Below are positions 5,667 to 28,465 of a stretch of 33,238 nt of DNA, piece after piece. The position numbers and the translations under genes were made by a program. This DNA comes from a phage. Under the pieces are notes generated by a model. It ran no database searches. It had not been told where the DNA came from and saw only the letters and a list, made by a program, of their open reading frames with translations. How positions within the stretch are numbered: position 1 is the stretch's first letter; every line of letters begins with the position of its first letter. The DNA lies in assembly GCA_018175035.1 (NCBI GenBank), contig GCA_018175035.1_4099.2. One strand, given 5' to 3'.

Positions 5667-6352
5667 TTAAAGATTTAGATAGAATTTTATATGTACTAAG
5701 GGGTGTAATTACATTACATCCACAAATCAATCGAATTGAAAGTACATTTCAGTTGGAGTCAAGAGAAACTCCATATTCACATATATCAAATGTAGTTGGT
5801 TCACTCAGTACTGAAGACTCGCCTTACGATATTTGTGTATGTGAAGTACAACCAAGTTCGGATCTTGGATTTGCTATTTTTGATAAAAATCAAAATCTCA
5901 TTAGTATGTTTCAGTGCAATAATCCTTTTTGGAAAACATGCCTGTATCCAGAGTGGGCGATGCTTGATCCAACCAAGAGTACCATTAAAGTTTATGACTC
6001 TAAAAATGATGAAGTCGTTATTGATTTGGATGAGTCAATGTCAGAGGAAGAACACTTTCAGCTAATGATGATGCGTGCTATGCCTGAGTACAATGCAATG
6101 ATTAACACTGTGCAATACATTAAGGATACTATGCCATCATTGCGTACACATGAGTTTTGTCATCCTGTATTGTATGAACATTTGGATTTAGATTTCAGTA
6201 CTATTAAATTTAAAGATAGTGTTATTAGATATATCCAAGAGGTTACTAAATTTGATTTTATTAGTACTATGAACAATAATCCAAAAACTAATTTTAGGCA
6301 TCAGTACAATGAATCTTTGTCCGGTGGACGCGATACAAGTTGGTGGAAATAA
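5663..6352 (+). CDS. Hypothetical protein
   Basis: TTG start overlapping upstream stop, GGGGA SD 8 nt upstream; 229 aa. Confidence 0.55.
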   Translation: MIKDLDRILYVLRGVITLHPQINRIESTFQLESRETPYSHISNVVGSLSTEDSPYDICVCEVQPSSDLGFAIFDKNQNLISMFQCNNPFWKTCLYPEWAMLDPTKSTIKVYDSKNDEVVIDLDESMSEEEHFQLMMMRAMPEYNAMINTVQYIKDTMPSLRTHEFCHPVLYEHLDLDFSTIKFKDSVIRYIQEVTKFDFISTMNNNPKTNFRHQYNESLSGGRDTSWWK

Positions 6353-13207: not shown

Positions 13208-13951
13208 ATGAAACACTTCTTAGAAGTAACCGTACCTGATGATAAAGATTTATACATTGTAGGTGATTTGCATGGTAATGGTAAACTATGGGATGCTACA
13301 GTGAAAGAATTTGGTATTACACACAATGATTATGTTTTCAGTGTAGGTGATATTATCGACCGTGGAGAACAAAATTCAAAGCTCCTTTTTGAATTTTTGT
13401 TCGGAGAAAATCGTTACATGATTGCGGGTAATCATGAGATGATGTGCGTTGATTCGGAAACACTTCGAGATTGGTATCATTGTTGGATAAGTAATGGTGG
13501 TGATAAATTCCTTGATGAAGTTGGAGGAACAGGCATTCAATTCTTTCGTCAGTACTTAAAGGATCTCCCTATGATTATCCAAATCAATCACCGAGGATTG
13601 AAGATTGGGTTAGTTCATGCTGGTGTTCCGTTGGAATATACAACATGGGAACGATTTGTTAATGGGACAAAATCACTTAGTGCTGATATAATTGATAAGT
13701 GCTTGTGGGATAGAAAAACATTCGATTATTGTAGAACTAATAATACATATTATGCACCTAAGTTAGATGGAGTGCATTGTGTCTTTAGTGGACATACAGC
13801 AGTTACAGATCCACTCATTTACGGTAATCGCATTTGGATTGATAGTCAGTTCTTGACGGGTGACTTAACTCTCGCTACTCCACAAAGTGGTGGAATGAGA
13901 TACTTACGTAAAGAAAAAGATGAGTACTCATTCAATCGTTTCAAAAGGTAA
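13208..13951 (+). CDS. PPP-family Ser/Thr phosphatase-like metallophosphoesterase (lambda PPase / ApaH-like)
   Basis: Motifs GDLHG, GDIIDRG, GNHE; ATG 13208 with GGAG SD just after upstream stop (track start 13193 overlaps upstream gene). Confidence 0.8.
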   Translation: MKHFLEVTVPDDKDLYIVGDLHGNGKLWDATVKEFGITHNDYVFSVGDIIDRGEQNSKLLFEFLFGENRYMIAGNHEMMCVDSETLRDWYHCWISNGGDKFLDEVGGTGIQFFRQYLKDLPMIIQINHRGLKIGLVHAGVPLEYTTWERFVNGTKSLSADIIDKCLWDRKTFDYCRTNNTYYAPKLDGVHCVFSGHTAVTDPLIYGNRIWIDSQFLTGDLTLATPQSGGMRYLRKEKDEYSFNRFKR

Positions 13952-14235: not shown

Positions 14236-14463
14236 ATGAAAGTAATTCAAGTTATGGTAGAAAAATACCAAACTGAAGATGGTCGTATTTTTGATTCAGC
14301 TAAACAAGCTGAACACCATGAACGTATTATTTCGGGTGCACGTAAAGTATGTCCTACATGTAATGGAACACAACAAGTACCGTCAGAAGATTACCGCAGC
14401 TTTTATGCTTGTCCACACTGTGATGGGAAAGGCTACGTAGAAAAACAAGAGGTATGGAAATGA
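14236..14463 (+). CDS. Small zinc-ribbon protein (CPTC...CPHC)
   Basis: ATG with AAGGAAA SD; two CxxC pairs. Confidence 0.55.
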   Translation: MKVIQVMVEKYQTEDGRIFDSAKQAEHHERIISGARKVCPTCNGTQQVPSEDYRSFYACPHCDGKGYVEKQEVWK

Positions 14464-19116: not shown

Positions 19117-19145
19117 TTGGACATTTTAAATCTTAGTGATATAAT
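19117..19145 (+). promoter_or_regulatory. Sigma70-type promoter TTGGAC-N17-TATAAT with extended -10
   Basis: -35 TTGGAC 19117-19122; 17-bp spacer; TGaTATAAT 19137-19145; about 35 nt upstream of the ClpP gene. Confidence 0.6.
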
Positions 19146-19179
19146 ACTCACAACAACGAAATAATAGAGGAAATTAATA

Positions 19180-19875
19180 ATGGTTGAACAATTCATGTTT
19201 GGTGGTTATGCTAATGGCGAAGTACGTAACATTTCTATTCCTTACGTAGTTGAGAAAGTTAATGGTTCAGAACGTACATATGATCTAGCATCTCGTATGA
19301 TGCAAGACCGTATCATTTTCCTTGATACTGATTTCAATGATCAAATGGCACATATCATCAAACAACAATTGGTATGGTTAGACTCACAAGGTGATTCCCC
19401 TATTACATTCTACATTAGTTCACCGGGTGGTTCAGTACACGCAGGTTTGGGTATTGCAGATGTTGCTAAGTCTTGTATTTCCCCAATTCGCACTGTAGTT
19501 ATGGGTTATGCAGCATCAATGGGTTGCTATACACAATCTGTTATTGGGACTAAAGGTTTCCGTTTAGGTGGTAAACGCTCATACTTCATGTGTCACCAAG
19601 TAAGTTCTGGTACACAAGGTCTAATTACTGACCAGAAGATTTCACTTAAACATTCTGATGCCCTAAACACTCTATTGACTAAAGAAATTGCAGAAGCAGT
19701 TGGTGTATCACACGAACAACTACTGAAAGATGCGGATCGTGACCTGTGGTTGAACGCTGAAGAAGCACTCGAATACGGTGAACATGGTTTCATTGATGGT
19801 ATCATCCTCGGACCACGCAACGAAGAAGGTAAGTATCTCGTCAAACGTCGCGGTGGCGTTGAAGAGTGGGTCTAA
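19180..19875 (+). CDS. clpP: ClpP-family serine protease proteolytic subunit
   Basis: Strong ClpP pattern: YSRMMQDRIIFL, SSPGGSV.AG, catalytic Ser in GYAASMG, His in MCHQ, Asp in DRDLW, C-terminal EALEYG. Confidence 0.85.
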   Translation: MVEQFMFGGYANGEVRNISIPYVVEKVNGSERTYDLASRMMQDRIIFLDTDFNDQMAHIIKQQLVWLDSQGDSPITFYISSPGGSVHAGLGIADVAKSCISPIRTVVMGYAASMGCYTQSVIGTKGFRLGGKRSYFMCHQVSSGTQGLITDQKISLKHSDALNTLLTKEIAEAVGVSHEQLLKDADRDLWLNAEEALEYGEHGFIDGIILGPRNEEGKYLVKRRGGVEEWV

Positions 19876-19889
19876 TTTGAATTTCATTT

Positions 19890-19916
19890 GATGCCTCATT
19901 TGGGGCATCTTATTTC
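19890..19916 (+). terminator. Rho-independent terminator after clpP
   Basis: Stem GATGCCTC / GGGGCATC (8 bp, one G-U), loop ATTT, T-rich tail. Confidence 0.5.
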
Positions 19917-19926
19917 TGGAGATTTT

Positions 19927-20217
19927 ATGAAAGTTCTTGTACGTAATAATACTGAAGTCAATGATGTGTTAGATGATTCAGAGTTTATTAATACCGCATT
20001 AGATCAGATTAGTGCAGTGGCTATTGAATTGAAAGGTGTTGACGAGGCAGAACGAGTACTCAATGGTTTTTCTATTGTTCTCGAATTAATGCAAGAAGTT
20101 CTTATTAAAAAGAACATTAATCCAATTAACGCAGTTCAACACGCAGAAGCTATGCGTCAAGAACATGGCACATTCTCAGATAAAAAATTCATCAGTACTG
20201 ACGAGGGGAAAGAATAA
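19927..20217 (+). CDS. Hypothetical protein
   Basis: ATG 19927 (MKVLVRNN...) after GGAG SD; track start 19888 is TTG inside the terminator. Confidence 0.5.
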   Translation: MKVLVRNNTEVNDVLDDSEFINTALDQISAVAIELKGVDEAERVLNGFSIVLELMQEVLIKKNINPINAVQHAEAMRQEHGTFSDKKFISTDEGKE

Positions 20218-20218
20218 T

Positions 20219-20665
20219 ATGTCTAATGCACAATACAAAGAAGGTTCTGCCGCGTTTAAAAACAAAGTAGTTTTTAACAATGAACAGCTAAAATCACAGC
20301 ACCCATTATTCCGTCAAGGATATCGTGCTGCACAAGCTGAAGCTATGAAGAAAAATAACGTAACCTTCCCAACAACTCTGTATGATATTCCCAAACGTCC
20401 TTCAGTGTTTAAAGCAGAATGGACTGACATTATGGCAGCGACAAAGCGTCCACGTTTTGCTAAATTACACACCGATGAAGGTCGCTGGTTGCTAATGGGG
20501 ATTATGAAAGCAGTTGAGAATCAATCTCATAAGATTGTTCGTTATAAAGATGTTGTTGCTATGGTTGATAAAGCATTTGACCTTGTACTTCAATATGGTT
20601 ATGATGAAGGTGTCCTAACTGTTTCTGATTGTGAAAAATATCAGTACACCCCATATCAAAAATAA
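20219..20665 (+). CDS. Hypothetical protein
   Basis: ATG 20219 directly after upstream TAA, GAGGGGAAAG SD; track start 20165 overlaps upstream gene. Confidence 0.55.
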   Translation: MSNAQYKEGSAAFKNKVVFNNEQLKSQHPLFRQGYRAAQAEAMKKNNVTFPTTLYDIPKRPSVFKAEWTDIMAATKRPRFAKLHTDEGRWLLMGIMKAVENQSHKIVRYKDVVAMVDKAFDLVLQYGYDEGVLTVSDCEKYQYTPYQK

Positions 20666-20676
20666 TATTACAAATA

Positions 20677-20704
20677 GGAATCCAGTACTGGATTCCTCTT
20701 TTTA
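20677..20704 (+). terminator. Rho-independent terminator
   Basis: Perfect inverted repeat GGAATCCAGTACTGGATTCC (centre CAGTACTG) followed by TCTTTTTATT. Confidence 0.6.
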
Positions 20705-20789
20705 TTGCTGTATATCAATTTTCATCGATCAAAAAATGATCTATATAAGCTAAATACCCAAGGAATCATTGTTACTAGGGTAGGTGAAT

Positions 20790-22521: not shown

Positions 22522-22550
22522 AAAAAAGGAGCCACAAGGCTCCTTTTTTG
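22520..22550. terminator. Bidirectional Rho-independent terminator between convergent genes
   Basis: A-run, stem AGGAGCC / GGCTCCT, loop ACAA, T-run; symmetric so functional on either strand. Confidence 0.65.
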
Positions 22551-22928
22551 TTAACCAGGGATGTTACAATAATACAAATCCCAAGGGTGATATTTCATTT
22601 CTCCAGTACTCAATTTAATTTTATGAAACTGGAATGATTCGGCAAATGCACTATCATCAATCTTAATACAAAAAGTATTTTTTGCTAAAGTTGGTGCAAT
22701 CTCTAGTGCAGTTTTAGATGCATCTAATCTGATTTTATCTTTATCAAAACTTGTTATAGTTACAAAACGATAAACATTAAAATCAGTGTCGATAAGATCG
22801 TAAACACAACTAGAACGTTGATTAAAGATGTTCAAGTTATATTTCAATTCACCGTTTATATTAGCGGCGGTTACACAAAAGCCGCCGATATTGAATGGTA
22901 ATTTACCTTGTGCTGCTATAGCTTTCAT
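22551..22928 (-). CDS. Hypothetical protein (125 aa); the only convincing minus-strand gene
   Basis: ATG preceded on the minus strand by AGAGGA at 8 nt; stop abuts the bidirectional terminator; competing + strand ORFs here lack SD. Confidence 0.55.
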   Translation of the reverse strand: MKAIAAQGKLPFNIGGFCVTAANINGELKYNLNIFNQRSSCVYDLIDTDFNVYRFVTITSFDKDKIRLDASKTALEIAPTLAKNTFCIKIDDSAFAESFQFHKIKLSTGEMKYHPWDLYYCNIPG

Positions 22929-23237: not shown

Positions 23238-23846
23238 ATGAAAAGACTATGGCTTGAGGTAGTACAAGCAGTAATGCTTCTGATGTTGATAAATTTTCCA
23301 GCCAGTGCTGGTATTGAAAGTAAAAATGTGATAAAGTACAATCCTGAAACACGTAATGTATATTTCATCTCAGATATTACGGATGGGTCACTAAAGCGTA
23401 TGATGGAGTTGTATGATAAAGAACACTATGATACCATTACCATCACATCGCCAGGTGGTGATTTTGATGCTGGGATTAAAATGGCAAACTTCGTTAGAGA
23501 CAATGGTATAAATTTAATTGTTTCTAGGTATTGCAACTCAGCATGTACTGTGGTATTCTTCAGTGTAGCTTTTGAAAAGCGATACATGATAAATCGCTCA
23601 GTACTGGGTCTTCATAACATTTCGATTAAAAGTAATGTTACTGATGGTGATAATTCATTTGTGTCTGTAAGACAGCTATCAACTTTTACCGAAGAAATGG
23701 CAACAAAGGTAGGTTTCCTTTTTTCACTATATGCAGCAAATGGAATCCCACCAGAAGTTCTATTTAGAGTTAGTCGTTCTCGTGGTGAAGATGTTGTAAT
23801 ATTAACAAAACCAGAACTGGTTTTTTACGGTTCAGTCAAACAATAA
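23238..23846 (+). CDS. Secreted (signal-peptide) ClpP/S49-like serine peptidase-fold protein
   Basis: N-terminal hydrophobic signal (LLMLINFPASAG); ClpP-like SPGGDFDAG, then CNSAC and GLHN in ClpP Ser/His positions; AAGGA SD. Confidence 0.55.
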   Translation: MKRLWLEVVQAVMLLMLINFPASAGIESKNVIKYNPETRNVYFISDITDGSLKRMMELYDKEHYDTITITSPGGDFDAGIKMANFVRDNGINLIVSRYCNSACTVVFFSVAFEKRYMINRSVLGLHNISIKSNVTDGDNSFVSVRQLSTFTEEMATKVGFLFSLYAANGIPPEVLFRVSRSRGEDVVILTKPELVFYGSVKQ

Positions 23847-23916: not shown

Positions 23917-24177
23917 ATGACAAACATCCAAAACTTGACATCTATTATTTTTTATGCTACTGTAGTAATGTATGCTACAGTTATTTTTCTAACAGTTTTC
24001 ATTTACAAAGATTATCGTAATGGCTTTATTGATCCAACTACAATGAAGTTCAATTCAAAATTCGAAGCAATAATTTATTATGTACTATCAACTTCATACT
24101 TGGTGTGCCTAATGTTGTTAGGAGCACTAATTTATATCTTATACACAACATTATTTGCAATTGGAGCTATTTTATGA
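23917..24177 (+). CDS. Small integral membrane protein (two TM helices)
   Basis: ATG ORF; hydrophobic segments. Confidence 0.5.
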   Translation: MTNIQNLTSIIFYATVVMYATVIFLTVFIYKDYRNGFIDPTTMKFNSKFEAIIYYVLSTSYLVCLMLLGALIYILYTTLFAIGAIL

Positions 24178-24767
24178 CCTGTATTATTGCACACACTGAC
24201 GGAGTAAGTTCTTTTATTGCTGGGGATAAGTTAGGAAGCAATGGATTTACAAAAACTGTTCAAACTGAGCCAAAGGTATTCGAGAAAGAATTTATCAAGT
24301 TACATGATGATGGACTAACTAGAACTAAAGAAGTAATGGCATTGGGTTATACTACATCATTTCGTATGGGTCAGTTGTTAAATTATAACCTTAATTTACC
24401 TGAACAAGATGCTAGTCAAACATTTTCACAATATTTGGTTCTTAAAGTTATTCCAATCATTCGTCAAATGTTTAAAGAAGAATGGGGTGCACGAGATGCA
24501 TCACAAGATGTAGGTGGTGGACAATTTATCATTCTCCACAATCATACAATCTATGAAGTTCAAGAAGACTTTTCAGTACTACAACCTAAAACAAGAATTA
24601 CCGCAGTAGGTAGTGGGACATATCATGCAATTGCAGCAATGCAAGCATATATTGAAGTTGAGAACGAATCTAAAAAACCACTACACGAACGTATCAAATC
24701 AATTTTTAAAATTGTTAGTGATAATGTAACAAGCGTAAGCGAAGAGTTTGATGTTTTAAAATATTAA
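24174..24767 (+). CDS. HslV/proteasome beta-subunit-like N-terminal-nucleophile hydrolase
   Basis: ATG 24174 (ATGA overlap, GGAG SD); N-terminus MTCIIAHTDG...IAGD parallels HslV MTTIVSV...IAGD with Thr at position 2; C-terminal AVGSGTYHAIAA parallels HslV AIGSGG.YA.AAA. Confidence 0.7.
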   Translation: MTCIIAHTDGVSSFIAGDKLGSNGFTKTVQTEPKVFEKEFIKLHDDGLTRTKEVMALGYTTSFRMGQLLNYNLNLPEQDASQTFSQYLVLKVIPIIRQMFKEEWGARDASQDVGGGQFIILHNHTIYEVQEDFSVLQPKTRITAVGSGTYHAIAAMQAYIEVENESKKPLHERIKSIFKIVSDNVTSVSEEFDVLKY

Positions 24768-26988: not shown

Positions 26989-28428
26989 ATGAAAAAATAT
27001 ACAATTGACACAAACGTACTACTATCTGACCCTAATGCATCTATTGCTTTTGATGGTGCTGCAATCATTCTACCATTTACAGTACTGGAAGAATTGGATT
27101 CAATTAAGAGTCGTAATGTAGATGTTTCACGCGATGCTCGTGTTGCTATTCGTAACATTGAAGCAATTATTGCAGATGCATCACATGATGAGATTAGTAG
27201 TACTGGTGTTAATATTGCTGATGTTCATACCAATATGAATCCTGATAGCAAATTGTTTGTTATTACAAACGAAGAAGCTGAAGCACTAATTCGTACTAAA
27301 GGTTCAGAAGAGAAAGTTCAAACCCTTCTCAAAAGCACAGTACCTGATGATAAAATCATTCTGGTAGCTTTAGCAACAGAATCAGTACTGGTAACTCGTG
27401 ATATCAACATGCGTATCAAAGCACTAAGTTATGGTGTCGAGGTACAAGATTATCGCCATGATATTGTTATTGGTGATAGTGATTTGATTCACATTGGTCA
27501 ACACCATTTGGAAATTAATTTTTGGGAAGTATATAGCAACTTATCCAATACTAATATTCAATCCGAACAAGTTGGTCGTCGTTTGTATCATTACATTTCT
27601 AAAAGCTTGATTGAACATTTGCTTCCACAAAATCTATGCATCGGTGATTATCTATATGATGATGCAGACGTATTATTTGTGTACGAAGGTCAATCAGCAA
27701 TTGAGGAAGATGATGGAACACTAACACCAGAAGATATTTTGGTATTCCAAGATATTGGACAATCAGTAGCTTTACGTGCTAAAGTATGGGATATTAAAGC
27801 AAAGAATATCCAACAAGCACTCGCCATCAACAGTATTCTCGATCCTGATGTACATCTAACAGTACTGCTAGGTTCTGCTGGTACTGGTAAAACACTAATT
27901 ACGATTGCTACTGCATTAGAATTAGTACTGGAAAAACGTAAATACGACCGAATCATCTTCTCTAAAACTCAAGACTCACAGTTTGAAGATATTGGTTTCT
28001 TGCCAGGTTCAGAAGCAGAAAAAGTGATTCCATTCTGTGGAGCCGCAATTGACGCGTTAGAGTTTCTTCATAAAGATGATGCTAACCCACAAGGTAGTAT
28101 TGAAGAGATTATGAAACGTAATGTTATTCAATTTAAAGCACTAAACTTTGTACGTGGACGTTCATTCACCAACACTATTCTAGTAGTTGATGAATTCCAA
28201 AACATTACACCTGCACAAGCCAAAACAATCTTGACACGAGCAGGATTAAACTGTAAAGTAGTAATTATGGGTAACTTGAGTCAGATTGACAGTAAGTTTA
28301 TTAGTCCTGTTAACAGTGGTTTGACATATGTAACTGAGAAGTTTAAAGATTGGGCAGGTTGTCGTGTCATCGAACTAGAAGGTGTTGTTCGTTCACCACT
28401 TGCAGAATTTGCTGAAGAAAATATGTAA
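26989..28428 (+). CDS. phoH: PIN-domain PhoH-like ATPase (PhoH2/YlaK-type)
   Basis: N-terminal PIN-like region (YTIDTNVLLSDP...LEELD); Walker A GSAGTGKT, Walker B VVDEFQN; 479 aa. Confidence 0.85.
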   Translation: MKKYTIDTNVLLSDPNASIAFDGAAIILPFTVLEELDSIKSRNVDVSRDARVAIRNIEAIIADASHDEISSTGVNIADVHTNMNPDSKLFVITNEEAEALIRTKGSEEKVQTLLKSTVPDDKIILVALATESVLVTRDINMRIKALSYGVEVQDYRHDIVIGDSDLIHIGQHHLEINFWEVYSNLSNTNIQSEQVGRRLYHYISKSLIEHLLPQNLCIGDYLYDDADVLFVYEGQSAIEEDDGTLTPEDILVFQDIGQSVALRAKVWDIKAKNIQQALAINSILDPDVHLTVLLGSAGTGKTLITIATALELVLEKRKYDRIIFSKTQDSQFEDIGFLPGSEAEKVIPFCGAAIDALEFLHKDDANPQGSIEEIMKRNVIQFKALNFVRGRSFTNTILVVDEFQNITPAQAKTILTRAGLNCKVVIMGNLSQIDSKFISPVNSGLTYVTEKFKDWAGCRVIELEGVVRSPLAEFAEENM

Positions 28429-28431
28429 TAT

Positions 28432-28465
28432 TGTATGGGACATTATGTCCCATACATGATATAAT
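28432..28465 (+). promoter_or_regulatory. 25-bp near-perfect palindrome (12-bp arms) overlapping a promoter with extended -10
   Basis: Arms 28432-28443 / 28445-28456 (TGTATGGGACAT-T-ATGTCCCATACA); TGaTATAAT 28457-28465; -35 position GGGACA inside the palindrome. Confidence 0.4.

Follow-up and report, generated by a model that had tools for sequence, protein, structure and literature searches.

What a ClpP peptidase does in a phage genome, and with which unfoldase it would work, is the question raised by the clpP gene at 19180..19875 (+ strand) of a 33,238-nt stretch of phage DNA, called the window here. An earlier note, made from the letters alone, had described the gene as a stand-alone proteolytic subunit forming its own promoter-to-terminator unit in a metabolic region, and had suggested that the product hijacks host unfoldases and is not a prohead protease. 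The window derives from an Asteriusvirus that is approximately 97% identical to known 121Q/PBECO4-type phages, with this level of identity spanning 23 kb. The existence of the gene is already known: a ClpP annotation is present in more than 30 deposited Asteriusvirus genomes, and the window protein shares 99.6% identity with annotated proteins. The Clp genes of Rak2-like phages have also been discussed in print (PMC6102473). Our literature search returned no paper containing "phage-encoded ClpP" or similar phrases, and neither transcriptome data nor biochemical or genetic results on this group of phages (Rak2-like/Asteriusvirus); the papers on Sharanji, phAPEC6, and CBB and the main text of that on PA5oct report nothing on the function or timing of Clp.

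The 231-residue product was identified as a cellular-type ClpP peptidase by its Pfam and structure matches, its triad, and its position in a tree. It matched Pfam CLP_protease (PF00574) at 141.6 bits (E = 3.3e-41; cut-off 20.2 bits) over profile positions 2-179 of 182, and the best matches among solved structures were bacterial ClpPs (E of approximately 5e-36 over residues 20-208). The NCBIfam ClpP models gave 152-155 bits, and neither the threshold of the bacterial ClpP equivalog TIGR00493 (152 bits versus a cut-off of 308.6) nor that of the subfamily model NF001368 (155 bits versus 249) was reached. Because both scores lie under their cut-offs, the phage protein is classed, on profile scores, as a divergent subfamily and not as a bacterial ClpP equivalog. 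The catalytic triad consists of Ser113 (AASMG), His139 (MCHQV), and Asp188 (DADRD) and is invariant in 66 of 66 phage-clade sequences and 43 of 43 cellular homologues; together with the Pfam match, these residues bear out the description of a full-length ClpP with an intact Ser-His-Asp triad. Across the 66 phage-clade sequences the oxyanion motif SPGG and the Met that follows the Ser (M98) are kept, as are the axial-loop residues P4, V6, E8, E14, R15, D18, S21, and R22 (E. coli numbering), and Y20 is replaced by A, P, or G. The N terminus comprises a leader of approximately 19 residues followed by the axial-loop motif IPYVVE...GSERTYD. In ClpP, this axial-loop region serves as the gate of the pore and as a contact site for the unfoldase. 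The leader is presumably removed, and the protein would assemble into the usual double-heptamer barrel. These matches identify clpP as a true ClpP protease gene, of the cellular type, in a 121Q/PBECO4-like jumbo coliphage.

The gene is flanked by genes for DNA ligase, a phosphoesterase, and dCMP deaminase, in agreement with its earlier assignment to a metabolic region and not to a head cluster. Klebsiella phage K64-1, with a ClpP 71% identical to that of the window, retains the order ligase, metallophosphoesterase, ClpP, dCMP deaminase, and so do GAP32 and metagenomic phage contigs with ClpPs that are only 45-59% identical. In the tree, the phage ClpPs form their own clade inside the cellular-type ClpPs, and the identity to E. 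coli ClpP is 35%. On the basis of this low identity, the separate clade, and the kept gene order, clpP is read as an old phage gene and not as a recent host capture. Recent capture of a host clpP was rejected on the same 35% identity, on the GC content of the open reading frame (41% in a 33%-GC phage), and on the deep synteny across phage genera. The gene would represent a long-standing, vertically inherited, non-structural component of the Rak2-like jumbo phages (Asteriusvirus and relatives).

The statement that no ClpX or ClpA gene lies nearby is true within the window, but "stand-alone" describes the local gene neighborhood only, as ClpA and ClpS are encoded elsewhere in the genomes of relatives. 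The 762-residue protein phAPEC6 gp246c (121Q gene 581), with AAA, AAA_2, and ClpB_D2-small domains, is a class-I, double-ring ClpA whose alignment with E. coli ClpA runs over the full length and takes in the N-domain, both Walker motifs, and the pore loops. Where ClpA has its IGL docking tripeptide, the phage proteins carry IGM (121Q), LGM (GAP32), or IGF (PA5oct). In 121Q, clpA is located approximately 84 kb from clpP, and the only GACA-N13-15-TGNTATAAT match in the 14.3 kb around it lies 41 nt upstream of its ATG (expected 0.01), which gives clpA a promoter of the class also present at clpP. The gene sits among tail and virion genes, where its product could act alone as an assembly chaperone. 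A ClpS domain was detected in the product of 121Q gene 48 (Pfam ClpS, 24.7 bits versus a gathering cut-off of 23) and in GAP32_314 (41.8 bits). No Asteriusvirus ClpX was present among the E. coli ClpX matches listed. Counted as phage records, and compared as counts and not as intersected accession lists, ClpP (at least 60% identity), such ClpA, and the ClpS-domain protein numbered 70, 71, and 72, respectively, from the same host genera and in nearly equal numbers per genus. Within a single phage lineage, such agreement in numbers could stem from common descent and not from function. Neither clpA nor clpS lies within the window, and we infer their presence in the window's own genome from the approximately 97%-identical relatives.

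The surface on which an unfoldase would dock was compared with the 16 residues of the E. coli ClpP ADEP/IGF-loop site listed in bioRxiv 10.1101/2023.03.01.530711. Thirteen of the 16 positions are conservative in the phage protein, including R22, L23 (M/L), V28 (I), L48, F49 (W/Y), Y62, I90, M92, and L189; with so many positions conservative, host ClpX or ClpA might still bind. Three positions are changed throughout the clade, where cellular homologues keep V, Y/F, and L, respectively: V44 is K in all 66 phage-clade ClpPs, F82 is N, S, G, or C, and L114 is G in 62 of the 66. The phage clade also possesses a clade-specific C-terminal tail (residues 211-231) containing a conserved 18-residue segment (..RNE.GQY.VKRRGG.EEWV) that is missing from cellular ClpPs. 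The remodeled docking face and the tail fit co-adaptation with a dedicated partner.

We consider it probable that the phage ClpP is a catalytically competent cellular-type peptidase that works with the phage's own ClpA as its most likely partner, modulated by ClpS, in a phage ClpS-ClpA-ClpP machine. The partner would be a ClpA-like hexamer of the phage and not a host unfoldase; it would dock on ClpP through its IGM loops, the ClpS-domain protein would modulate the choice of substrates, and the three components together would constitute a phage-encoded degradation machine. Its candidate substrates are proteins of the host, early proteins of the phage, or misfolded proteins. The alternative closest to the earlier suggestion is that host ClpX and/or ClpA drive the phage barrel, alone or besides the phage ClpA, so that host unfoldases are redirected to a phage-controlled chamber. 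Such redirection agrees with the retained axial-loop motif that contacts unfoldases, with the many conservative pocket positions, with a window devoid of unfoldase genes, and with the view of Iyer et al., who proposed an anti-host role for jumbo-phage ClpP with host proteins as targets and count ClpP among the peptidases likely deployed against the host (PMC7824862). It is nevertheless unlikely in our judgment, in view of the ClpA with a docking tripeptide and the ClpS-domain adaptor that the family itself encodes, both distributed like ClpP, the clade-wide, non-conservative changes at V44, F82, and L114, the C-terminal tail next to the pocket, and the 35% identity to the host ClpP. The idea of a stand-alone subunit that hijacks host unfoldases is thus not supported.

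Two further peptidase genes lie downstream of clpP on the + strand. A second ClpP-fold protein of 202 residues (23238..23846) bears a conserved N-terminal, signal-peptide-like hydrophobic helix with an FPASA motif and on that account looks exported. It was rejected as a ClpP1P2-type partner on the basis of this helix, its approximately 20% identity to ClpP, and its absence from GAP32. The second gene (24174..24767) encodes an HslV/BPH-like N-terminal-threonine peptidase of 197 residues. An HslU partner for it was sought by tblastn with E. coli HslU and rejected, as only 4 "Escherichia" phage records were obtained versus 33-34 for ClpP and ClpA. We tentatively entertain, as a possibility less probable than its opposite, a stronger form of the proposal for a phage-encoded machine, in which the rebuilt docking face of ClpP (V44K, F82N/S, L114G, and the 18-residue tail) would accept the phage ClpA (IGM loop) as its sole partner and be insulated from host ClpX and ClpA. 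The result would be a private machine, expressed from sigma-70-type promoters and removing selected host or defense proteins, alongside the orphan HslV/BPH-like peptidase and the putatively exported ClpP-fold protease 3.4-4.3 kb downstream.

A morphogenetic role is suggested by existing labels; ClpP would then be a protease that matures the head or virion, or ClpAP would process virion proteins or control their quality in the course of assembly. The best PHROG match of ClpP is PHROG 94, "head maturation protease" (3.9e-44), and RefSeq labels the ClpP of 121Q, GAP32, and others in the same way. The head-maturation model NF045542, however, gave 51.2 bits versus a cut-off of 120 and covered only residues 57-200. 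The head-protease profiles match ClpP only from residue 57-75 onward and thus are devoid of the axial-loop region. A search of the structural module for a separate prohead protease, as the earlier note had advised, located one in phAPEC6 (a 93%-identical relative): a T4 gp21-type protease (Pfam Peptidase_S77, 9.9e-21; 29% identical to T4 gp21) whose gene lies between the scaffold and portal genes, adjoins the major capsid gene, and is more than 100 kb from ClpP. The virion proteome of phAPEC6 (62 proteins) contains this protease, gp227c, and not ClpP, gp353c (PMC7247149). Virion mass spectrometry of CBB yielded one ClpP peptide, with 4.5% coverage (PMC5259590), which speaks for a morphogenetic role and is also an observation against a ClpS-ClpA-ClpP system. 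In 121Q, GAP32, and PA5oct, clpA is flanked by virion structural genes, which likewise favors morphogenesis. Against it, the phylogeny places ClpP inside the cellular-type ClpPs and at a great distance from two ClpP-like head proteases encoded next to portal genes, and the clpP promoter is of the sigma-70 type, whereas structural genes of CBB and GAP32 are reported to have a T4-late-like ATAAATA motif (PMC5259590). The prohead-protease reading was rejected on the model scores, the separate S77 protease in the head module, and the tree position, as the earlier note had anticipated; the label "head maturation protease" is very probably wrong for clpP, and we regard a morphogenetic role in the wider sense as improbable. 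A non-proteolytic decoy that poisons or titrates host Clp components without degrading substrates itself could in principle be built from the altered docking face and extra tail, with nothing direct in its favor, and is highly improbable given that the triad and oxyanion residues are strictly kept in 66 of 66 clade members over deep divergence, which argues for selection on catalysis.

Transcription of clpP would begin at a sigma-70-type promoter at 19118..19145 (+ strand), with a -35 element TGGACA (19118-19123), a 16-nt spacer, TATAAT (19140-19145), and the extended -10 element TGATATAAT (19137-19145), an 11/12 match with a TG extension. The promoter proposed earlier, TTGGAC-N17-TGaTATAAT, is real but is better read as TGGACA-N16-TATAAT; the hexamer TTGGAC agrees with TTGACA at only 3 of 6 positions. 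Generic sigma-70-like matches were not enriched in the region (50 observed versus 48.9 expected). The motif class GGACA-N13-15-TGNTATAAT was enriched, with four sites in the window versus 0.02 expected, all on the gene strand and three of them approximately 30-35 nt upstream of a start codon, and the clpP promoter belongs to this recurrent class in the form GGACA-N13-15-TGATATAAT. Four other Asteriusviruses (121Q, phAPEC6, G17, and UE-S1) have exactly this site; K64-1 carries a different, equally good TTGACA-N16-TGtTACAAT at the same place, and GAP32 has no intergenic gap at this position. A Shine-Dalgarno-like AGAGGA (19166..19171, + strand) is located 8 nt upstream of the ATG, where UE-S1 annotates a ribosome-binding site. 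Host sigma-70 RNA polymerase would presumably transcribe clpP from this recurrent phage promoter class ([T/G]GGACA-N13-TGATATAAT), probably with early or middle timing. Scans of the window for tRNA genes and Rfam families gave no matches.

Downstream of the clpP stop codon, a terminator-like hairpin (GAUGCCUC-AUUU-GGGGCAUC, followed by UUAUUUCU; 19890..19917, + strand) was recognized by its fold energy (-13 kcal/mol, z = -3.3 for 19890-19909) and by the corresponding position in relatives. K64-1 possesses a hairpin of different sequence at the same place (-14.5 kcal/mol, z = -3.0), and the UE-S1 sequence there, also different, folds no better than shuffles (z = -0.68). The hairpin is probably partial, that is, leaky and attenuating. 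Because the next ATG (19927) lies 18 nt past the hairpin with no promoter between, the T-tract after the hairpin is short, and a terminator is annotated after the third gene, the clpP unit is probably not self-contained; of the promoter-to-terminator unit proposed earlier, the promoter and the stable hairpin stand, but read-through probably extends into two small promoterless genes as far as a stronger terminator. This intrinsic terminator (20676..20706, + strand; hairpin 20676-20697, 9-bp stem, CUUUUUAUU tail; -12.5 kcal/mol, z = -3.3) also appears in the terminator annotations of G17 (ARNOLD) and UE-S1, and the transcription unit likely ends here. A tricistronic transcript is probable, in which the internal hairpin would lower read-through into the two downstream genes. 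The first of these (19927..20217, + strand), probably co-transcribed with clpP by read-through, encodes a conserved 96-residue protein that alignment and the Pfam matches of a distant orthologue (PRA-PH, 21.5 bits versus a cut-off of 21.3; MazG-like, 20.3 bits) relate to the MazG/PRA-PH-like all-alpha NTP pyrophosphatases, from which it has diverged; it is syntenic in K64-1, GAP32, and two metagenomic phage contigs. The second (20219..20665, + strand) encodes a conserved 148-residue protein of PHROG 16190 (function unknown) that is always a few genes downstream of clpP, and its alignment has 21 invariant columns across phages with ClpPs down to 45% identical to that of the window. Both genes were considered as Clp adaptors and found no support, the first being MazG/PRA-PH-like and the second having no detectable family.

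Comparison with E. coli ClpAPS revealed the same three components, matching triad, oxyanion, and axial-loop motifs in ClpP, a ClpA with an N-domain, D1 and D2 rings, pore loops, and an I/L-G-hydrophobic docking tripeptide, and an adaptor with a ClpS domain. The phage system differs in the 35% identity of its ClpP, the changes at V44, F82, and L114, the 18-residue C-terminal tail and longer leader, the size of the ClpS-domain protein (181 versus 106 residues), an insertion in the ClpA N-domain, and genes dispersed over the genome in contrast to the clpS-clpA and clpP-clpX operons. Other huge phages with genomes above 280 kb (Bacillus phage G gp257-258, Lak phages, Agrobacterium phage Atu_ph07, and Pseudomonas phage PA5oct) also carry cellular-type Clp genes, and Atu_ph07 and PA5oct likewise encode ClpA and ClpS. 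In phage G, clpP and clpX are adjacent, whereas the likely partner of the Asteriusvirus ClpP is a ClpA encoded far away. With 34% identity, the PA5oct-type ClpP occupies a separate branch among cellular ClpPs, which suggests independent acquisition. The head-maturation proteases of small tailed phages (NF045542; for example, Paenibacillus phage Tadhana gp4) share the ClpP/crotonase-type fold family, serine protease chemistry, and the PHROG and annotation labels. Unlike the Asteriusvirus clpP, which lies in a nucleotide-metabolism region of a phage with an S77 head protease, they are encoded between portal and major capsid, are 24-28% identical, and are without the N-terminal axial-loop region. 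Human mitochondrial ClpP possesses a 28-residue C-terminal extension that is reported to modulate ClpX binding. That extension emerges next to the unfoldase-docking pocket, as the phage tail presumably does, and its sequence is unrelated to that of the phage tail.

The useful outcome of this analysis is a phage ClpP subfamily with a distinctive docking surface and C-terminal tail, and clpP is best viewed as part of a single system together with clpA and clpS, which lie far away in the genome. Should the machine prove orthogonal to that of the host, it would exemplify a virus that brings its own regulated-proteolysis system and may be of use as a tool, in the form of orthogonal degradation tags for E. 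coli.

On the basis of its identity to Asteriusvirus phages, we place the window in a ∼350-kb "Rak2-like" jumbo coliphage genome. The 3-kb stretch around clpP matched 45 phage records, led by Escherichia phage 121Q (94.1% identity); phAPEC6 was 93.5% identical in nucleotide sequence over this stretch (99.6% for ClpP), and a 23-kb window stretch was 96.6-97.1% identical to Asteriusvirus E9.1, CRJP21, JP4, and others. Nearly all window genes are on the plus strand, gene order is colinear with 121Q genes 422-492, the GC content is 33%, and neither tRNAs nor Rfam families turned up in a scan of the window. The series DNA ligase, metallophosphoesterase, ClpP, dCMP deaminase also occurs in Klebsiella phage K64-1, in GAP32, and in two metagenomic phage contigs with ClpPs 45-59% identical to that of the window. 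From sequence comparison, clpP is an old phage gene, inherited vertically. DUF723-domain genes are inserted beside clpP in distant metagenomic relatives (contigs L018, 8727-10013, and L019, 5283-6035), one of them separating clpP from its two customary downstream genes in L018; we suspect that these are putative mobile homing-endonuclease-like elements interrupting the conserved clpP unit. Elsewhere in the window, a 75-aa protein with two CxxCxG motifs (14236-14463, plus strand), named "DnaJ-like" in 121Q and without a J domain, fell below the Pfam cut-offs for Anti-TRAP (30.7 bits; cut-off 32) and the DnaJ CXXCXGXG zinc finger (23.1; cut-off 32.7). The single minus-strand gene amid the plus-strand region (22551-22928), bounded by terminators at 22522-22549, is a structural gene of the late class lodged in the metabolic region; virions of phAPEC6 contain its orthologue, gp347 (75% peptide coverage), and an Ig domain is annotated in 121Q. 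The PhoH-like/PIN protein (26989-28428; gp341c) was also detected in virions.

The clpP ORF (19180-19875, plus strand) encodes 231 aa and, as the earlier note had described, a full-length ClpP with an intact Ser-His-Asp triad. The protein scored 141.6 bits against Pfam CLP_protease with almost the whole profile covered, and bacterial ClpP structures matched it at E ∼5e-36. Alignment with E. coli ClpP identified Ser113 (AASMG), His139 (MCHQV), and Asp188 (DADRD) as the triad and the first ∼19 residues as the leader; the axial-loop motif is IPYVVE...GSERTYD. Identity is 35% to the host ClpP and ∼45% to the nearest cellular homologues.

The premise that this ClpP has no partner does not hold for the phage family's genome in full, which encodes, elsewhere, both a ClpA and a ClpS-domain protein. 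The 762-aa ClpA (phAPEC6 gp246c, 121Q gene 581) contains AAA, AAA_lid_9, AAA_2, and ClpB_D2-small domains, and is alignable to E. coli ClpA from the N-domain through the C-terminus. Its Walker A and B motifs are both in place, as are the pore loops KYR and GYVG. Where ClpA has the IGL tripeptide for docking into ClpP, the phage protein carries IGM, with LGM in GAP32 and IGF in PA5oct. The ClpS-domain protein is encoded by 121Q gene 48 (Pfam ClpS 24.7 versus a gathering score of 23), and GAP32_314 scored 41.8 bits. In 121Q genes 47-49 (972-2651 of genome stretch L023), the ClpS-domain gene is directly 3' of a translation initiation factor IF3 homologue and is followed by a KTSC-domain protein labelled "DnaJ-like." Within the phage collection, ClpP at least 60% identical to that of the window occurred in 70 records, ClpA at least 60% identical to that of phAPEC6 in 71, and the ClpS-domain protein in 72; the host genera agree (Escherichia 33-34, Klebsiella 10-12, Salmonella 8-10, and Erwinia 8), agreement here meaning matching per-gene record counts, not intersected accession lists. 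The most likely reading is that these genes probably specify a phage-encoded ClpS-ClpA-ClpP protease that would work in the cytoplasm, with predicted expression from sigma-70-type promoters.

At the ADEP/IGF-loop site, as listed for E. coli ClpP (bioRxiv 10.1101/2023.03.01.530711), 13 of the 16 residues are conservative in the ClpPs of the phage clade, which form a subfamily of their own. The clade-wide changes, counted in an alignment of 120 ClpP homologues, are V44 to K (66/66), F82 to N/S/G/C, and L114 to G (62/66), and P115 and N116 beside the L114 site are likewise altered; cellular homologues retain V, Y/F, and L at positions 44, 82, and 114. An 18-aa C-terminal tail (..RNE.GQY.VKRRGG.EEWV) is conserved in all phage-clade ClpPs and absent from cellular ClpPs. 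In known structures the ClpP C-terminus emerges next to the docking pocket. Taking the altered residues, the tail, and this location together, it is reasonable to suppose that the docking face may have been remodelled by co-adaptation with the phage ClpA.

Use of host ClpX or ClpA by the phage ClpP, suggested by the earlier note, is compatible with the sequence and with a partnership with phage ClpA, and we regard it as rather unlikely. Both the gene and the anti-host hypothesis are already known, since Attai et al. (2018) listed ClpX, ClpA, ClpB, ClpP, and ClpS for Atu_ph07, a Rak2-like phage, and noted conservation of ClpA in most Rak2-like phages (PMC6102473), and Iyer et al. (2021) singled out ClpP as most prominent among the patchily distributed peptidases of jumbo phages, with the host as its likely target, and mentioned ClpS, ClpA, and ClpX in phages (PMC7824862). 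Our literature search found no functional study of these phage Clp proteins. In phage G, clpP and clpX are adjacent, and the Lak phages have both ClpP and ClpX.

A morphogenetic role for ClpP would fit the RefSeq/PHROG labels, the location of clpA amid tail and virion genes, and the detection of one peptide of ClpP (4.5% coverage) in virions of CBB (PMC5259590), the sole datum that runs counter to the evidence below; we consider it distinctly improbable. In phAPEC6 the head module holds gp225c (major head protein), gp226c (scaffold), gp230c (portal), and a separate T4 gp21-type protease, gp227c, which matches Pfam Peptidase_S77 (9.9e-21), is 29% identical to T4 gp21, and is encoded >100 kb from clpP. 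The phAPEC6 virion proteome (62 proteins) includes gp227c and lacks the ClpP, gp353c (PMC7247149). On NCBIfam models the window ClpP scored 152-155 bits for cellular ClpP versus 51 bits (cut-off 120) for the ClpP-related head-maturation model, and head-protease profiles aligned only from residue 57-75 on. A neighbor-joining tree placed it in a jumbo-phage clade within the cellular-type ClpPs, far from the ClpP-like proteases encoded between the portal and capsid genes of Tadhana and TPDSL_ph2 (a distant branch, 24-28% identity). The separate S77 protease, NCBIfam scores, tree, and virion proteome argue strongly against a head maturation protease, and on the scores and tree position the RefSeq/PHROG-94 label of that name looks like annotation carry-over. 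The earlier interpretation is half right: the protein is very probably not a prohead protease, yet it is probably not partnerless. The triad is invariant in the 66-member phage clade and 43 cellular sequences, which makes it very improbable that ClpP serves as a decoy lacking catalysis; the oxyanion and most axial-loop residues are invariant in both groups as well.

The clpP promoter noted earlier is real, but its TTGGAC-N17 spelling is better replaced by TGGACA-N16-TATAAT with the extended -10 TGATATAAT (11/12 match). Generic promoter-like matches are at chance level in the AT-rich DNA of the window; GGACA-N13-15-TGNTATAAT has four window sites, all on the coding strand, versus 0.02 expected. 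The class [G/T]GGACA-N13-15-TGATATAAT (pattern matches at 2697-2723, 13665-13692, 19119-19145, and 28438-28465, plus strand) lies 30-35 nt upstream of a start codon that has a Shine-Dalgarno sequence at three of the four sites and is unlike TGAAACG, the published -35 consensus of CBB and GAP32. The clpP site is identical in 121Q, phAPEC6, G17, and UE-S1, K64-1, whose ClpP is 71% identical, carries another near-consensus promoter in its place, TTGACA-N16-TGtTACAAT, and GAP32 has no intergenic gap there, so the promoter is confined to a subset of the group. The 121Q clpA gene forms its own promoter-to-terminator unit, with a strong bidirectional terminator after the gene. The 14.3 kb around it contain a single GACA-N13-15-TGNTATAAT match (expected 0.01), the candidate promoter tAGACA-N13-TGATATAAT, a mismatched class copy located 41 nt upstream of the ATG (5935-5960 of 121Q stretch L012). 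The same promoter class suggests that clpP and clpA may be co-expressed, a picture complicated by the tail and virion genes neighboring clpA in 121Q, GAP32, and PA5oct.

The terminator hairpin proposed for clpP (19890-19909) is also real and stable (-13 kcal/mol, z -3.3), but the gene is probably not a self-contained unit. K64-1 has a hairpin of other sequence and about equal folding at the same place (-14.5 kcal/mol, z -3.0); the UE-S1 site also differs in sequence, and its fold does not improve on shuffled sequences (z -0.68). Because the hairpin has a short T-tract, the next gene begins 18 nt past it without its own promoter, and a stronger terminator stands after the third gene (20676-20697, where annotators of G17 and UE-S1 set an equivalent one), we take the transcription unit to comprise clpP and two small genes and not to be strictly monocistronic, with a hairpin inside it that would act as an attenuator. 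These two genes (19927-20217 and 20219-20665, plus strand) are syntenic 3' of clpP in every genus examined. The first encodes a diverged protein of the MazG/PRA-PH-like type; one distant orthologue reaches the Pfam PRA-PH cut-off, but the window copy falls short; the second (148 aa, 21 invariant columns) has no detectable protein family.

Outside the clpP unit and within 5.6 kb of it are two further protease genes, both on the plus strand. The first (23238-23846, 202 aa) encodes a second ClpP-fold protein, whose AF2 model (pLDDT 70) has its best matches among ClpP chains (7m1l, E 5.6e-7, TM 0.55-0.60) and in which SPGGDFD, YCNS101, and GLH126N are invariant. With a conserved, signal-peptide-like N-terminal hydrophobic helix and FPASA motif, it is probably an exported serine protease; only 13 homologues were found among 5.8 billion proteins. 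K64-1 has a syntenic gene that carries the annotation "protease," and GAP32 has no counterpart there. The second (24174-24767, 197 aa) is an HslV/BPH-like N-terminal-threonine (Thr1) peptidase (BPH, betaproteobacterial proteasome homologue) with M1-T2, D18, K34, and G146/G148 invariant in 35 sequences and an AF2 model (pLDDT 92) best matching HslV (6kr1, 3.5e-10) and BPH (5ovs, TM 0.68-0.70) in the PDB. Asteriusvirus genomes showed no detectable HslU homologue, so this protein is an orphan compartmental peptidase. With these two extra genes near clpP, the phage has an unusually rich protease set.
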